A program made the position numbers and the translations under genes. From NCBI GenBank assembly GCA_965218585.1, contig CBDCLE010000024.1:224001-288000 (forward strand): a stretch of DNA of 64,000 bases, given 5' to 3'. Source of the DNA: Terriglobia bacterium (lineage in GTDB: Bacteria > Acidobacteriota > Terriglobia > 20CM-2-55-15). The notes below the pieces were generated by a model that was not told the origin of the DNA, did not search any database, and was given only the letters and a program-made list of their open reading frames with translations. Below, in pieces: positions 20,750-26,978 of the stretch (its first letter is position 1; each line of letters opens with the position of its first letter).

Positions 20750-21571
20750 ATGTCCGGACCACTGGAAAACCGAACCGTAGCGATCACAGAGCATCGTTTT
20801 GAGAATGAATTGATGACTCTGATCGAAAGACATGGTGCCCGGGTTCTTTCCTGTCCGCTGCTGGAAGAGCGTCCGGTCGGGAACCGGTTTGAGTTACAGG
20901 TCTTTATAAGAGAACTCATCGCGGATGGATTCGACTTCATGGTGTTTTTCACGGGAGTCGGTGCCCGGTTTATTGCCCAAGAGGCCGATACGATGGAGCA
21001 GTCGGATCAATACAGGCAAGCGCTCGGCGGAATGAAAGTCGTGGCTCGGGGCAACAAACCCAGATCAGCGTTGGCGAAGCTGGGATTAGGTGTAGATCTG
21101 GCGCCAGAAAAAGCGACTTCTGAAGGTTTGCTCGAACTGCTCGCGGAGGAAGGGATCGATGGAAAACGCGTCGGGGTTCAGCTCTACGGCAGCCCGAACC
21201 CGGATTTCATCGCGGGCCTGGAAAACCTTGGGGCTCGGATCACAGTCGTTCAGGTCTACAACTATGGCCCGGCTTCGGATTCGGAGCGGGTGGTCGGTTT
21301 TATCGATACACTACTTTCCGGCGAAGTTGACGTGATCACCTTTACCAGTGCGCCGCAGGTCGAGTCTCTCTTCGACACTGCCAATACGGCGGGCCGAGCA
21401 GGGAAACTCGGTGTCGCTTTGAACGAGAAAATCTCTGTTGCAGCAGTGGGCGAAGTAACCGAGCGGGCGTTGGTTGGCTACGGGATCACCGTGCGGATTC
21501 TTCCCAGGGCGCCAAAGATGGGCCCTCTGGCGGATGCGATTGCTCAGTATTTCGACAAGAGACAATGGTGA
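20750..21571 (+). CDS. hemD: Uroporphyrinogen-III synthase
   Basis: LENRTVAITE, FFTGVG, ARGNKP, QLYG, ITFTSAPQV, AVGEVT; directly upstream of cysG. Confidence 0.85.
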   Translation: MSGPLENRTVAITEHRFENELMTLIERHGARVLSCPLLEERPVGNRFELQVFIRELIADGFDFMVFFTGVGARFIAQEADTMEQSDQYRQALGGMKVVARGNKPRSALAKLGLGVDLAPEKATSEGLLELLAEEGIDGKRVGVQLYGSPNPDFIAGLENLGARITVVQVYNYGPASDSERVVGFIDTLLSGEVDVITFTSAPQVESLFDTANTAGRAGKLGVALNEKISVAAVGEVTERALVGYGITVRILPRAPKMGPLADAIAQYFDKRQW

Positions 21572-22979
21572 AGTATTTTCCGATTTCGTTGAACGTGAAG
21601 AGCCGGGACGTGACGGTGATCGGGGGTGGTCTGATCGCCGAGCAACGGGTCGAGACGTTGCTCGAGTGTGAGGCGCGCGTGAAGGTCATCAGCCCGGAGG
21701 TGACGGAAAGGCTAAAGTCTCTTGCCGAGGACGGTTCCATTCGCGTTCAGTTGCGCGGCTACGCGCCCGGGGATCTTGACGGCGCGTGGGTGGCGCTGGC
21801 TGCCGCCGATGATTCATCTGTCAATGACGCAGCCTGGGGTGAGGCGCGAGAGCGTGACATTCCTATCAATGTGGCGGACGATGCTTCCCGGTGTGATTTC
21901 ATCATGCCCGCGCTCGTGCGCCGAGGCGATCTGACAATTGCGATATCCACGGGTGGCACGAGCCCTGCTCTGGCAGCTCGATTGCGGCGCCGTATATCCG
22001 CGATCGTGGGACCCGAATACGGGAAGCTGCTCCGGGTCTTGAGCCGCGTTCGGTCCCGGCTGAAACAGTCGGTGCCCGACGATGAAGAACGCAAGAAACT
22101 GCACTACCGGATCGTGGATTCGAAGATCCTTGGGAGAATACTCGAATCAGAACGCGAGATAGTCGATTCCGAGATCGATGAAATCATCAGGGATGCTTCC
22201 CGAACAGAACCCGAGGCAGAAGGTGTTGTGTATATCGTCGGCGCCGGTCCAGGGGACCCGGGTCTGATCACCTGGCGCGGTCTGGAGTGTGTGCGCCATG
22301 CCGATGTGATCTTGCACGATCGTCTCACGGACCCACGCCTGCTGGAGGAGTCGGGTCCGGGTGCAGAGGTCATCGACGTCGGAAAACGCGCCGGAGATCG
22401 CGGCCGCATGCAGGATTTCATCCATGAAACGATGGTCGAGCGGGCTCGGCGTGGTCAGATAGTCTGTCGTCTGAAAGGGGGAGATCCTTTTGTATTTGGG
22501 CGGGGCGGGGAAGAGGCGATGGCGTTGACCGGGGCCGACGTTCCCTTTGAAATCATACCCGGAGTGACCAGTGCGATCGCAGCGCCGGCTGCTGCCGGAA
22601 TACCGTCACGCACCGTGGTGCGGCGCATTCTTTCATGGTGATGACAGGTTCCCGGGCCGACGATGCCAGTCCCGAGGAATGGGCGGGAGCGGGAAGCATT
22701 CTTGCGGGAGGAGGAACGTTGGTGGTCCTGATGGGGCTGTCCCGTCTGGATGTCATCGTGAAACGGCTCAGTGAAGCTGGTTGTTCAGGTGAGACGCCTG
22801 CTGCTGTGATTTCTCGTGGAGCCTGGACCGAACAGGATGTTCGTATCGGGACACTGGAAGACATCAAGACTCGATCGGGAGGAATCGCGTCGCCCGCGGT
22901 AATCGTTTTCGGTGTGACCATCGAGGAGAGAGGCCGGCTCCGAGAGGTACGTGCCGCTATGTCGAACAGAAAAGCGTGA
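21565..22979 (+). CDS. cysG: Siroheme synthase CysG (dehydrogenase/ferrochelatase + SUMT); frameshift at ~22605
   Basis: VIGGG, NVADD..CDFIMP, IAISTGG.SP; VGAGPGDPGLIT, RLKGGDPFVFGRGGEE, PGVTSA; adding one base restores GIPVTHRGAAHSFMVMTG and joins ORFs 21565-22641 and 22635-22979. Confidence 0.9.
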
Positions 22980-22993
22980 GGCGGAACCGAGTC

Positions 22994-23275
22994 TTAGATT
23001 CGCCCGCCGGAGATCGCTGGAATAATCGCAACTTCCGCTCCTGTTGGAACCTTTGTCTTCAGGTCGTCCAGGAAACGTACATCTTCGCCATCGACGTAGA
23101 TGTTGAAGAAGCGTCTTAATTCTCCCGTGTCTTCACACAGGCGGTCTTTGAGCCCCGGATATTTCTGATCCAACTCATCGAGAATGTCCGAGATCGTCTC
23201 GGCCTGGACATCGATCTGGGAATCCTCTGCGGTGAAATGCCTGAGGGGTGTAGGGATGGTGACCCGAGTCGTCAT
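22994..23275 (-). CDS. MoaD/ThiS/CysO-family ubiquitin-like sulfur carrier protein
   Basis: VTIPTPLR..LRRFFNIYVDGEDVRFL..IIPAISGG followed by a two-residue extension RI. Confidence 0.9.
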   Translation of the reverse strand: MTTRVTIPTPLRHFTAEDSQIDVQAETISDILDELDQKYPGLKDRLCEDTGELRRFFNIYVDGEDVRFLDDLKTKVPTGAEVAIIPAISGGRI

Positions 23276-23300: not shown

Positions 23301-24539
23301 TTACGCGGTTAGGCCCAGTTCGTTCACGGCAGCATCGAATGCTCCAAGTTTTGCTTCGATCACTCTTGGAGACTGAAGGTTTAGAGCATCTTGCGTCTTC
23401 AGGCCGTTTCCGGTGATCGCAATAACTGTCTGGTCATGAGGCTTTATCTTTCCCTGTGCAACAAGTTTTCGAGTCACTCCTAGAGCGACTCCCCCGGCAG
23501 TTTCGGTGAAGATGCCTTCGGTTTCAGCCAGCAATTGAATGTTTTCGACTATCTCTTCGTCTGTAACGTCTTCGCCCCACCCACCTGAAGTGGTCATGAT
23601 TTCTGCTGCATAGTATCCGTCTGCGGGCGACCCAATTGCGAGTGACTTGGCGATAGTCGCCGGTTTTACGGGTCGAATGTTCCGGGTTCCGTTTTTGACT
23701 GCTGCCGTTATTGGATTGCAGCCGGTTGCCTGAGCACCGTAAAGCTTGGTTTGAACCGGTGCCTCCAGCAATCCCAGGTTTTCGAATTCTTTCATTCCCA
23801 TGTGAATTTTCGTAATCAGGGATCCTCCGGCCATGGGGACAACGACCGCGTCGGGCGCGCGCCATCCGAGCTGCTCGGCGATTTCGTACCCGAACGACTT
23901 TGACCCGTCACCATAGTAAGGCCGCAGGTTGACGTTGACGAACCCCCAGCCATAACTGTCGGCAACCTGGCTACAGAGGCGGTTGACGTCGTCGTAGTTG
24001 CCGGCAACGGCGATGACGTGGGAGCCATATATAGAAGTAGCGATGACCTTGGCTGTCTCCAGATCCTCAGGAATCAATATCCAGGCGGGCAGTCCGGCTG
24101 CGGCGGCATTAGCCGCGACTGAATTTGCGAGGTTTCCGGTGGAAGCACAGCCGACGGCAGGTAGTCCGAATTCCAGAGCCTTGTTGATCGCGACGGCGGT
24201 GACGCGGTCTTTAAAAGACAGTGTCGGGAAGTTTACGCCCTCGTTCTTGATGTAAAGCTCATCGATGCCGATTTCACGTCCCAGTCGCTGGGCATGAACC
24301 AGAGGTGTGCCTCCCGTCGCCAGTCCGATCTGAGGGTCGTCGTCAATCGGCAGCAGTTCGCGGTAACGCCAGATGGAATTGTCGCGCGAGCGGATGACCT
24401 CTCGCGTTAAGACCCTACCGATTGCTTCGTAGTCGTATTCGACCTTGAGAGGGGCGAAACACTCCTGACACCCGGCAATCGGGGTCTTAGGGTACTGATG
24501 GCCGCATTCTCGACAGCTTAGCCCCGTAACGAAGCTCAT
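23301..24539 (-). CDS. Threonine synthase-like fold-II PLP enzyme (candidate O-phosphohomoserine sulfhydrylase)
   Basis: N-terminal CxxC..CxxC, PTLSFKDR (PLP Lys), CASTGNLA, NVNLRPYY, KSLAIGSPADG, ITGNGLKT; co-oriented with the sulfur carrier gene. Confidence 0.88.
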   Translation of the reverse strand: MSFVTGLSCRECGHQYPKTPIAGCQECFAPLKVEYDYEAIGRVLTREVIRSRDNSIWRYRELLPIDDDPQIGLATGGTPLVHAQRLGREIGIDELYIKNEGVNFPTLSFKDRVTAVAINKALEFGLPAVGCASTGNLANSVAANAAAAGLPAWILIPEDLETAKVIATSIYGSHVIAVAGNYDDVNRLCSQVADSYGWGFVNVNLRPYYGDGSKSFGYEIAEQLGWRAPDAVVVPMAGGSLITKIHMGMKEFENLGLLEAPVQTKLYGAQATGCNPITAAVKNGTRNIRPVKPATIAKSLAIGSPADGYYAAEIMTTSGGWGEDVTDEEIVENIQLLAETEGIFTETAGGVALGVTRKLVAQGKIKPHDQTVIAITGNGLKTQDALNLQSPRVIEAKLGAFDAAVNELGLTA

Positions 24540-24576
24540 TCATCTCTCCTGGGCGCGTACCAGCGGGTTCCACAAT

Positions 24577-24614
24577 AAAAAAAGAACCCCGCGCCATACA
24601 GCACGGGGTTCTTT
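24577..24614 (-). terminator. Intrinsic terminator of downstream riboswitch unit
   Basis: Minus strand AAAGAACCCCGTGC-TGTATG-GCGCGGGGTTCTTT followed by a T run, ~40 nt before the start codon. Confidence 0.85.
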
Positions 24615-24626
24615 CGAAATCCGCCG

Positions 24627-24678
24627 GACTGTTTAGCACATTTTTAACGTGGAGCAATTTGTCTTTAAATCGCCACGC
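24627..24678 (-). ncRNA. SAM-II-like riboswitch aptamer, copy 2
   Basis: CGUGG-CGAUUU-AAAGACAAA-UUGC-U-CCACG-UUAAAAAUGU-GCUAAA-CAG; has the SAM-II pattern (P1 stem, GAUUU, UUGC, A-rich linker, GCUAAA). Confidence 0.78.
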
Positions 24679-24688
24679 TGCCCATACT

Positions 24689-24716
24689 AAAAACCCTACG
24701 CCAACGGCGCAGGGCT
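24689..24716 (-). terminator. Intrinsic terminator of upstream riboswitch unit
   Basis: Minus strand AGCCCTGCGCC-GTT-GGCGTAGGGTT-TTT. Confidence 0.8.
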
Positions 24717-24731
24717 TCAGTGGGACACCTG

Positions 24732-24782
24732 AGCTGTTTAGCACATTTTTAACGTGGAGCAATTTGCGTAAATCACCACGCC
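24732..24782 (-). ncRNA. SAM-II-like riboswitch aptamer, copy 1
   Basis: CGUGG-UGAUUU-ACGCAAA-UUGC-U-CCACG-UUAAAAAUGU-GCUAAA-CAG; 33 nt identical to copy 2 (24734-24766 = 24629-24661). Confidence 0.8.
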
Positions 24783-24796
24783 TAACCAGCCCAGTG

Positions 24797-24826
24797 AGAA
24801 TAGCCCGGTGCAGTCTGCACCGTCAA
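24797..24826 (-). promoter_or_regulatory. sigma70-type promoter for the riboswitch leader
   Basis: TTGACG-18nt-TATTCT on the minus strand, predicting a start ~10 nt before aptamer 1; palindrome CGGTGCAG-T-CTGCACCG (24806-24822) in the spacer. Confidence 0.6.
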
Positions 24827-24862
24827 CTTATCTTTTCGTCGGACCCCGCGAAGAAAGTGGCG

Positions 24863-24950
24863 AAAAAGTGGGGACAGGTCACTCTTTTTGCGTCTGTGCC
24901 GCACTCGAAGACGAAGAGCGGGCAAAAAGAGTGACCTGTCCCCACTTTTT
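24863..24950. repeat. Long perfect inverted repeat (REPIN/MITE-like)
   Basis: 29-bp arms AAAAAGTGGGGACAGGTCACTCTTTTTGC (24863-24891) and its exact complement (24922-24950), 30-nt spacer. Confidence 0.85.
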
Positions 24951-25055: not shown

Positions 25056-26978
25056 GTGGGCGAGTTGATGGTCAAGCGCTTGAAGACCGACCAGCTGAGG
25101 CACTTCGCCAAGACGCTTTTACGTGATGTGCGGGCCCTGGAGCGAATGCTTTCGGAAGGCTTGATCCAGTCGGGCCAGCGCCGGATAGGCTGTGAACAGG
25201 AAATGTTTCTCGTCGACAGGGCGTGGCGGCCGTTTCCGGTAGCGCTGGAGATACTCGACCGGCTGGGGGATGCACATTTCACGACCGAACTCGGGCGCTT
25301 CAATCTGGAAGCGAATCTCGACCCTCAGGCGTTCGAAGGGGACTGCCTGTCGCGGATGGAAGCAGATCTTCTGGCCAAGCTTGCCGCCGTACGCGAGGTT
25401 GCCCATGGGATGGGCGGAGAGATCGTTCTGACGGGTATTCTTCCAACGCTGCGGAAGTCGGACCTCGTTCTTGACAACCTGACTCCCAAGCCACGTTATT
25501 ACGCGCTCAACGAAGCCATGAATCAACTTCGTGGCGGCGATTATGAGTTTAGGTTGCGGGCTTCGGATGAACTCATCGTCAAACAGGATTCCGTCATGCT
25601 GGAATCCTGCTGCACCAGTTTTCAGATCCACTATCAAACCGATCCGGAAGATTTTGTCCAGCTCTACAATGGGGCGCAGGCGTTCACAGCGCCGCTTCTT
25701 GCAGCAGCTGTCAACTCTCCGATGCTGTTCGGCCGGCGTCTGTGGTTCGAAACCCGCGTACCTCTGTTTCAGCAGGCTATCGATACGCGCCGAGCAACGG
25801 CATCACTGAGAGAGCGTTCGTCGCGCGTAAGTTTTGGGGAACGTTGGTTGGAAGGTTCTGTTGTGGAGTTGTTCCGTGAAGACATTGCCCGATTCCGCAT
25901 TCTGCTGGGTGTTGAAGTCGACGAAGATTCACTTGCCACCCTCAAACAGGGGGAGATTCCCGATTTGAGGGCACTTCAGGTACACAACGGAACAGTTTAT
26001 CGATGGAACCGCGCCTGTTACGGCTCGAACGGCACGACGCCGCACCTAAGGATTGAAAATCGTGTTCTGCCCTCAGGTCCGACAGTTCTGGATGAGGTGG
26101 CAAACGCTGCGCTGTTCTTCGGACTGATGCATGCCATGCCTGACGCATACCCGAACCTCTCCAATGTGATGGATTTTGACGATGCACACGTGAACCTCAT
26201 GGTTGCCGCACAGACGGGATTGAAAGCGCGCTTTCGGTGGATTCACGGAAGAGCCATATCCGCAGGGGATCTGATCCTCGAAGAGTTGTTGCCGATTGCA
26301 CGGGAGGGTTTGAAGTCTGGGGGAATCACCCAGGCTGATGTAGACCGGTATCTGGGCGTCATTGAAGAACGGGTGTCGGCGGGCCGAACCGGAGCACAGT
26401 GGATGTTGAAGTCGTTTGCCGACACTCGGGGGCTTCGTCGGGATGCTGCGCTCACGGCTTTGACGGCGGCGACAGTCCAGCGACAGTGGAGTGGAGAGCC
26501 GGGCTATCGGTGGAAGCCTGCAACATTGGAGGAAGGTATGACCCTCGAACGCCAGAAATTGCGGATCGAAGAATCGATGAGCACAGATCTGTTTACGATT
26601 CATCCGGACGAACCCATCGACCTAGTGACGAATCTGATGGACTGGAAGCGCATTCGCCACGTTCCCGTTGAAGATGACGACGGACGGTTAGTGGGACTCG
26701 TGTCTTATTCTGAGGTGCTCCGATACTTCAACCAGGGTGGAAAGGAAGAAGGCCTTCCGGTATCTGCGGATTCTATTATGGATCCTGAACCAGTGACCGT
26801 ATCACCGGAAACACCGGTGTTGGATGCGATCTCGTTGATGACCGAAAAGAAAGCTGATTGTCTGCTTGTGGTCAAGGATGAGCGGCTTGTGGGGATTGTG
26901 ACCGAACATGACGTGCTGAGTCTGGCAGCGCACCTTCTCGCTGAAGGCCAGAATGGTGCCGGGGTTCGGAACGGATGA
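25056..26978 (+). CDS. Glutamate-cysteine ligase family 2 (GCS2/YbdK-like) protein fused to a C-terminal CBS pair
   Basis: IGCEQEMFLVD, TTELGRFNLE, TSFQIH, ETRVPLFQQAID, HNGTVYRWNR, HLRIENRVLPSGPT; IRHVPV and LVGIVTEHD CBS motifs. Confidence 0.88.
   Translation: MGELMVKRLKTDQLRHFAKTLLRDVRALERMLSEGLIQSGQRRIGCEQEMFLVDRAWRPFPVALEILDRLGDAHFTTELGRFNLEANLDPQAFEGDCLSRMEADLLAKLAAVREVAHGMGGEIVLTGILPTLRKSDLVLDNLTPKPRYYALNEAMNQLRGGDYEFRLRASDELIVKQDSVMLESCCTSFQIHYQTDPEDFVQLYNGAQAFTAPLLAAAVNSPMLFGRRLWFETRVPLFQQAIDTRRATASLRERSSRVSFGERWLEGSVVELFREDIARFRILLGVEVDEDSLATLKQGEIPDLRALQVHNGTVYRWNRACYGSNGTTPHLRIENRVLPSGPTVLDEVANAALFFGLMHAMPDAYPNLSNVMDFDDAHVNLMVAAQTGLKARFRWIHGRAISAGDLILEELLPIAREGLKSGGITQADVDRYLGVIEERVSAGRTGAQWMLKSFADTRGLRRDAALTALTAATVQRQWSGEPGYRWKPATLEEGMTLERQKLRIEESMSTDLFTIHPDEPIDLVTNLMDWKRIRHVPVEDDDGRLVGLVSYSEVLRYFNQGGKEEGLPVSADSIMDPEPVTVSPETPVLDAISLMTEKKADCLLVVKDERLVGIVTEHDVLSLAAHLLAEGQNGAGVRNG

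Follow-up and report, generated by a model that had tools for sequence, protein, structure and literature searches.

How many working switches stand between the promoter and the start codon of a methionine-pathway operon in a Terriglobia bacterium, and to which class do they belong? The question is raised by a leader on the minus strand of a 64,000-nucleotide (nt) stretch of contig CBDCLE010000024.1 (assembly GCA_965218585.1, positions 224,001 to 288,000), hereafter the window, in whose positions all coordinates are given. The leader is read from 24826 to 24537 and precedes two genes resembling metM and metO. With a probability of about 0.85, it comprises two complete, independent riboswitches of the S-adenosylmethionine (SAM)-binding class SAM-II in series, both acting as OFF switches on transcription termination. 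A promoter-like site, aptamer 1, terminator 1, aptamer 2, terminator 2, the sequence AGGAGAG and the ATG at 24539 follow one another, all present where the initial annotation of the locus had placed them, so that two aptamers and two different terminators lie between one promoter and one start codon:

24797..24826, minus strand: sigma-70-like promoter, -35 TTGACG at 24826-24821, 18-nt spacer, -10 TATTCT at 24802-24797 (9/12 matches)
24733..24782, minus strand: aptamer 1, SAM-II type (RF00521, 26.7 bits, E 4.1e-4, model positions 1-79); P1 24782-24776 with 24757-24751, GAUUU 24774-24770, UUGC 24762-24759, GCUAAA 24742-24737; P2a 5' GC 24767-24766 and 3' GC 24734-24733
24689..24716, minus strand: intrinsic terminator 1, 11-pair stem 24716-24706 with 24702-24692, loop GUU, U5 at 24693-24689, -18.8 kcal/mol
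24627..24679, minus strand: aptamer 2, SAM-II type (RF00521, 29.9 bits, E 5.5e-5, model positions 1-79); P1 24679-24673 with 24652-24646, GAUUU 24671-24667, UUGC 24657-24654, GCUAAA 24637-24632; P2a 5' GAC 24663-24661 and 3' GUC 24629-24627
24577..24615, minus strand: intrinsic terminator 2, 16-pair stem 24615-24580, loop GUAU, U7 at 24583-24577, -24.7 kcal/mol
24537..24550, minus strand: Shine-Dalgarno (SD) sequence AGGAGAG 24550-24544 and start codon ATG 24539-24537

The promoter-like site was found once, compared with 0.3 ± 0.6 times in 50 shuffled sequences. Its -35 hexamer is identical in 5/5 leaders of the genus and its -10 hexamer keeps the pattern TATNNT in 5/5; the putative transcription start is placed from this site. 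The ATG of the metM-like gene aligned with residue 1 of its orthologues.

Class assignment of the two aptamers

Both aptamers contain CGUGG/CCACG, GAUUU, UUGC, an A-rich linker and GCUAAA, and an exact 33-nt repeat is common to them (24629-24661 and 24734-24766, spacing 105), in agreement with the initial annotation. The CGUGG, GAUUU, UUGC, CCACGUUAAA and GCUAAA blocks of both copies aligned to the consensus of RF00521 (SAM_alpha), the Rfam family of the SAM-II riboswitch (Corbino et al. 2005, cited in PMC2258182), for which the crystal structure 2QWY is available (cited in PMC11508383). When the 421-nt stretch 24480-24900 was searched with cmscan in E-value mode, SAM_alpha ranked first and third among the 27 matches at E ≤ 10 (24612-24686 and 24717-24789). 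The SAM-II long-loop model matched weakly (15.9 and 13.8 bits), SAM-V (RF01826) did not match at this threshold, and no further riboswitch family was among the 27 matches. A model of our own, R1, built from 41 distinct units with P1 as its sole structure and used for counting only, scored 75.6 bits on aptamer 1 and 76.6 bits on aptamer 2, values that are high by construction, since these sequences went into the model. The genome of the window (95% complete) yielded exactly two matches with R1 and, with RF00521, both copies plus two 16-bit matches at chance level.

The copies resemble SAM-II in the full-length alignment to the model, the P1 hairpin, the H-type pseudoknot between P1 loop and 3' tail, the GAUUU, UUGC and GCUAAA elements, the terminator as expression platform and the methionine-pathway genes downstream. 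They differ in a score below the Rfam gathering score, in a P2a of two to three pairs, in a shorter P1 loop, in the host, which belongs to the Acidobacteriota (Terriglobia) as opposed to Proteobacteria or Bacteroidetes, and in the genes they precede, metM-metO versus metA, metX or metZ.

Covariation was evaluated on 63 matches (55 distinct) aligned to R1, with P1 and the pseudoknot as the structure. Across the 55 distinct aptamers, the seven pairs of P1 were 94.8% paired and three of them were altered on both sides (CG/GC at 7-42, GC/CG at 10-39, and UA/AU/GU at 5-44). P2a, in which three loop bases pair with three bases two positions past GCUAAA, was 86.7% paired, with two of its three pairs altered on both sides and switching among GC, GU and AU; the co-variation of loop and tail noticed earlier within the leader (GAC/GUC in copy 2, GC/GC in copy 1) corresponds to these P2a pairs and thus extends to the homologous leaders. 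The P2a signal is not circular, because the alignment was fitted to P1 only. P2b, formed by UUGC with the GC-AA of GCUAAA, was invariant and therefore uninformative on covariation either way. The covariation score was 0.158 compared with 0.108 ± 0.007 in shuffled alignments and at most 0.042 in six slid controls; none of 500 shuffles reached 0.158, a count that is not a probability and that overstates the significance, since the aligned aptamers are related. In the minimum free energy (MFE) fold of the whole leader, the aptamer bases took non-pseudoknot pairings, which is uninformative since a pseudoknot lies outside the folding model.

The GAUUU, UUGC and GCUAAA elements were invariant or at least 90% conserved in the sets of 41 and 55 sequences, and a role in ligand binding has been described for this core, i.e., the U-rich L1 strand, UUGC and GCUAAA/P2b (PMC11508383). 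The scores under the Rfam cut-off and the shortened P2a/loop region could also be expected of a variant SAM-II fold particular to the lineage and responding to a different ligand, such as S-adenosylhomocysteine or another metabolite of the methionine cycle, and SAM aptamers do have close variants whose ligand has changed, a spermidine class derived from a SAM aptamer being reported in PMC10853860. Such a change of ligand is very improbable here: the core matches the SAM-II consensus and is invariant or nearly so in 55 distinct sequences, the genes downstream are of methionine synthesis, and their orthologues elsewhere stand behind SAM-I riboswitches.

Terminators and the proposed switch

The two terminators are unrelated in sequence, as the initial annotation had noted. 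Terminator 1 is kept in 5/5 leaders of the genus. In the terminator search, 46 of 56 distinct aptamer-plus-flank sequences showed a hairpin with a U run downstream of the aptamer. The ten aptamers that lack such a hairpin include two downstream copies of genus g3. In these two g3 genomes (loci L007, 1625-1782, and L008), it is the gene-proximal aptamer that has no recognizable hairpin and U tract, so the second unit of these leaders may work in another way or be on its way to losing the terminator.

Each unit was also folded only up to its terminator loop, mimicking the moment before the 3' arm exists. In unit 2 of the window and in most homologues, the strand following GCUAAA then paired with the 5' arm and loop of the terminator; GUUUGG is the loop sequence of many terminators and complements the AAAC of GCUAAAC. 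Two candidate antiterminators were delimited:

24703..24738, minus strand: candidate antiterminator 1, AAC.GC.CAGG 24738-24728 with CCUG.GC.GUU 24713-24703, 9 pairs and 2 mismatches
24598..24632, minus strand: candidate antiterminator 2, ACAGU.CGG.GG..UUC 24632-24616 with GAA CC CCG.GCUGU 24611-24598

Antiterminator 2 is the MFE structure of 24637-24597 (-13.4 kcal/mol, z -2.77, 2/200 shuffles as good) and was seen in the prefix fold, too. Antiterminator 1 is the MFE structure of 24742-24703 (-9.1 kcal/mol), and its pairing came up again when the close homologues L019 and L022 were folded as prefixes. Each candidate takes up the 3' strand of P2a, so that pseudoknot and antiterminator would be mutually exclusive.

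Alongside the sequence, structure, covariation, conservation and gene context, which the comparisons show, we infer SAM as the ligand, termination as the response, the antiterminators and the shape of the dose response, as follows. Binding of SAM would stabilize the H-type pseudoknot of each unit with P1 closed, the U-rich GAUUU strand and UUGC/GCUAAA forming the binding core, and the P2a 3' strand, i.e., the bases after GCUAAA, would pair with the P1 loop. In the absence of SAM, this strand (AAAC-AG(U)C...) would form an antiterminator with the loop and distal 5' arm of the terminator that follows, and transcription would read through. With SAM bound, the strand would be held in the pseudoknot, the terminator would form, and transcription would stop near 24689 in unit 1 or near 24577 in unit 2. 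Full-length mRNA would require read-through at both sites, so expression would be predicted to fall more steeply with rising SAM than under a single switch, a tandem design termed pseudo-cooperative that we propose as the logic of the leader.

A third partner of the same strand was suggested by full-length folds, in which the strand after GCUAAA paired 3' of the terminator U tract and enclosed the terminator:

24557..24629, minus strand: candidate helix around terminator 2, GUCCGGCGG.UUUC 24629-24616 with GGAA.CCGCUGG.AC 24571-24557
24727-24723 with 24683-24679, minus strand: weaker five-pair counterpart around terminator 1

The helix around terminator 2 is the MFE structure of 24632-24540 (-42.5 kcal/mol, z -3.92) and sits 16 nt before the start codon. 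The same layout was found in most homologous leaders with differing sequences (CAGCUCCGAAAGGG with CCCUUGUCGAGGCUG, CAGCUCGACAGGG with CCCUCUGUCGAAGCUG, CCGGUGGUU with AACCAUCGG, and AAUCCACAAG with UUUGUGGGUU). Leaders of the genus vary in the 3' strand, which is CCGCUGG-AC in the window and CGCCGGA in the others, and still keep it complementary. Cognate duplexes averaged -12.8 kcal/mol compared with -10.4 kcal/mol for non-cognate ones, and 0/5000 permutations reached the cognate value. Counting against the helix, no more than 5% of dinucleotide shuffles were as good in only 5/19 leaders, and RNAalifold on a MAFFT alignment of 14 single-unit platforms, whose flanks were out of register, recovered the terminator alone (14 pairs), with neither the enclosing helix nor the antiterminator. 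The comparisons thus lend moderate support to a candidate conserved helix, which may reset or insulate the leader after read-through. That each unit is a three-way switch, in which the third conserved partner of the post-GCUAAA strand closes a helix around the terminator in read-through transcripts, is a tentative reading and on balance doubtful. If it were true, the aptamer would be barred from its SAM-binding fold once transcription has passed the decision point, the following unit or the ribosome-binding site would be insulated, a translational layer may be added in the window's genus, and the expression platform would be of a design that was not found described for SAM-II.

An "anti-anti-SD" role of the enclosing helix, which would free the SD sequence in the absence of SAM, was rejected as a general mechanism, as no consistent effect on SD accessibility was found among 29 leaders. 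When the first 7 nt of the switching strand were blocked, predicted SD accessibility decreased in 11/29 leaders and increased in 11/29; it decreased in all five leaders of genus g1, the genus of the window, which fits such a role, and increased in most leaders of genus g7.

Age and distribution of the tandem leader

Could the duplication have been produced by misassembly at the repeated 33-mer, a possibility that the initial annotation had reckoned with? Short-read contigs from the probable source sample (X1 and X2) break at the repeated core, 24672-24722 is without cover there, and both copies are never contained in a single one of the pieces listed. The stretch from one core over terminator 1 to the other is bridged by contigs that stem from a different study (X3, records 20 and 21) and by an RNA-library contig (X14, record 9). 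Ten further genomes of the family have the tandem layout, the single-contig assemblies G006 and G017 among them, and it is also seen in other families. An artefact is accordingly extremely improbable.

The tree of the units (53 units, 65 columns) was poorly resolved. It contained one split supported at 100/99, with 15/15 upstream copies, 10/14 downstream copies and one single copy on one side and 23/24 single copies with four downstream copies, all four from family f2, on the other. In genus g1, upstream and downstream copies formed separate groups, which together with this split indicates that the duplication predates the genus. Comparison of five species of the genus showed next to no change in either aptamer or either terminator, and variation with indels in the promoter spacer and downstream of terminator 2. 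Judged by this near-invariance and the separate tree groups, both units have been kept for a long time, as had been proposed from the window alone, and it is constraint on the core, not recent copying, that the 33 identical bases reflect. The comparisons thus support two full units of SAM-II type, both maintained and both equipped with a terminator of their own.

At E ≤ 0.01, RF00521 matched 33/61 related genomes and 0/14 control genomes: 28/34 in the window's family, 4/4 in a second family and 0/22 in nine others. Only two of the 61 relatives carried aptamers over the Rfam cut-off, both orthologous, at 37.0 and 36.2 bits. In the window's family, R1 matched 30/35 genomes, 19 of these 30 with a single unit and 11 with two matches 105-135 nt apart on one strand (5/5 genomes of the window's genus, 4/5 of genus g3, and 2/5 of genus g4). 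In a sample of the class, 28/151 genomes matched (f1 17/20, f2 6/6 with five tandem, f6 4/19, and ten other families 0/105). In a sample of the phylum, 13/151 matched, including families f28, f40 (7/7), f43, f48 and f59, with tandem pairs in four genomes of other classes (G179, G211, G247 and G258). Over 80 loci of metM homologues from other phyla, R1 gave three real matches, all from Acidobacteria; the model is narrow and says little on other SAM-II variants.

Several results weigh against two working SAM-II switches, besides the invariance of P2b and the relatedness of the aligned aptamers mentioned above. The Rfam scan of the whole window at gathering thresholds gave no match, and both aptamers lie 6-9 bits under the RF00521 gathering score of 36 bits, so that the covariance-model match called for in the initial annotation is there for both copies, below the Rfam cut-off. 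P2a has two to three pairs in the window, shorter than the Rfam consensus. The U tract of terminator 1 is only five long, and a simple consensus scanner failed to list this terminator; the one site that it did list is no more than in shuffled sequences (mean 1.1). Antiterminator 1, taken alone, was no better than chance (z -0.65, 46/200 shuffles as good), and cognate antiterminator duplexes were marginally more stable than non-cognate ones (-8.9 compared with -8.3 kcal/mol, 22/5000 permutations). The RNA-library contig X14 is from a relative and shows no transcription ends.

The U5 tract of terminator 1 and the chance-level antiterminator 1 would also fit a leader with only one working switch, in which the other unit, most likely upstream unit 1, mainly yields a short terminated RNA or is a decaying duplicate. 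Stable small RNAs are produced from SAM-II leaders in Sinorhizobium (PMC9373788), and a single unit suffices in most members of the family (19/30). This explanation is unlikely in view of aptamer 1 and terminator 1, which hardly change among the five species of the genus, in contrast to the variable promoter spacer and post-terminator region, and of the upstream copies, which group together across two families and thereby argue for long maintenance. Two independent switches in series are the preferred reading.

Related aptamers were also observed outside the metM context. Genome G001 of the window's genus contains two SAM-II-like aptamers (L009, 1504-1572, on G001:C7, and L162, 1637-1709, minus strand, on G001:C5; RF00521 34.0 and 30.7 bits, R1 47.8 and 38.4 bits), whose pseudoknot 3' strand abuts the ATG of a 79-amino-acid (aa) HTH_17/excisionase-like open reading frame, with a tyrosine recombinase gene downstream at C7; a SAM-type riboswitch within an integrative element would be unusual. 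A third (L012, 1507-1573, minus strand, on G008:C280; 30.1 bits to RF00521) lies about 60 nt before a gene for a TonB-dependent receptor with CarboxypepD_reg, Plug and OMP barrel domains, and no terminator was found there. In G017 (L016, C1, around 1400504-1400698), a tandem aptamer-terminator pair is followed by an IS21-family transposase gene and not by metM, with no metM-like gene within 1.4 kb downstream; the transposase may mark an insertion that severed the leader from its operon.

The regulated operon and its place among known systems

Two genes follow the leader:

23301..24539, minus strand: 412-aa ThrC-family pyridoxal phosphate enzyme with an N-terminal four-Cys motif, read as a MetM-like homocysteine synthase (TIGR00260 285 bits, PF00291)
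22994..23275, minus strand: 93-aa ThiS/MoaD-family sulfur-carrier protein, read as MetO-like (PF02597 55.8 bits, NF041918 64.4 bits)

In the MetM/MetO route, O-phosphohomoserine is converted to homocysteine via a thiocarboxylated carrier, MetM being a ThrC homologue that is often misannotated (GapMind 2026 paper). The ThrC-like and ThiS-like gene pair fits this route by its sequence. The genome contains three ThrC-family genes over the TIGR00260 cut-off (286, 229 and 176 bits), the 412-aa enzyme among them, and the best solved relatives of this protein are threonine synthases. Its closest named relative is from a metagenome-assembled genome of a "Terriglobia bacterium" (86% aa identity), consistent with the Acidobacteriota-like genome suggested earlier. 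The carrier gene lies directly downstream of the metM orthologue in 25/80 loci from several phyla (76 of the 80 had room for it), and a SAM-I riboswitch was found upstream on the same strand in 5/20 orthologue loci of other phyla by Rfam scan, within 300 nt in four. An element of SAM-II type stands directly before the metM-like gene in 27/30 loci, mostly followed by metO, and likewise before a metM-like gene in L163-L165 and L168 of other classes. Repression by SAM would be physiologically sensible for a homocysteine synthase and would not be for a threonine synthase.

Elsewhere in the window's genome, a SAM-I riboswitch (RF00162, 80.9 bits; G000:C2:34095-34204, L161 1501-1610) precedes a 418-aa gene product of the cystathionine-gamma-synthase/O-succinylhomoserine-sulfhydrylase family. 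Of the neighbouring genes, both on the plus strand, one (21565-22641) runs convergently to the end of the operon and encodes a CysG-like siroheme synthase, which makes a cofactor of sulfur assimilation; the other (25056-26978) is divergent from the promoter and encodes a protein of 640 aa that combines a GCS2 glutamate-cysteine-ligase-like domain with two CBS domains. Immediately upstream of the -35 hexamer, 24863-24950 forms a perfect 29-nt inverted repeat with a 30-nt spacer, at which metagenome contigs pile up and stop; with 67 BLAST matches (both strands counted) at at least 25 places in the genome, it is a dispersed palindromic repeat resembling repetitive extragenic palindromes or miniature inverted-repeat transposable elements.

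The architecture of the leader is of an already known kind. Sherlock et al. 2022 (PMC9481103) report 44 tandem SAM-II riboswitches, some with a terminator after each aptamer, and interpret them as pseudo-cooperative; the leader shares with these two complete SAM-II riboswitches and an intrinsic terminator for each, and the 44 examples may or may not include Acidobacteriota. According to the same paper, SAM-II is usually linked to terminators, contrary to the statement in the initial annotation that the class often acts on translation; for both reasons, the architecture is not unusual, contrary to what had been claimed there. The SAM-II/SAM-V "bi-mechanism" of Candidatus Pelagibacter (Poiata et al. 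2009, via PMC9481103 and PMC11508383) likewise places two pseudoknot aptamers for SAM one after the other, and the first has a terminator; in the window, by comparison, the second unit is of SAM-II type with a terminator, and the SD sequence lies outside the second aptamer. Streptomyces albulus metM-metO (Hasebe et al. 2024, via PMC12172450 and the GapMind 2026 paper) resembles the operon in its ThrC-like and ThiS-like genes behind a SAM riboswitch, whose position upstream of metM is implied in PMC12172450, and differs in its phylum and in that the riboswitch of the window is a tandem of SAM-II type. SAM-II in Acidobacteriota was not found in the open papers returned by a literature search, PMC2864571 among them, although the 2022 supplements and the full match lists of Rfam may hold cases; the text of the review PMC5473149, its distribution figure aside, does not mention Acidobacteria. 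Neither an association of the SAM-II class with metM-metO nor the terminator-enclosing helix was found in print.

The finding leaves the understanding of how riboswitches work unchanged. It extends the SAM-II class to the Acidobacteriota, a major phylum of soil, in a variant that standard annotation misses because it scores under the Rfam cut-off (2/61 relatives over the cut-off compared with 33/61 at E ≤ 0.01). It connects SAM-II with the MetM/MetO route, described only recently, and speaks for assigning these "threonine synthases" to the methionine pathway in annotations. Two classes of SAM riboswitch, SAM-I and the SAM-II type, would guard two routes to homocysteine in one cell, and the natural single and tandem versions of one leader within the family would offer a clean comparison of what the second switch contributes.

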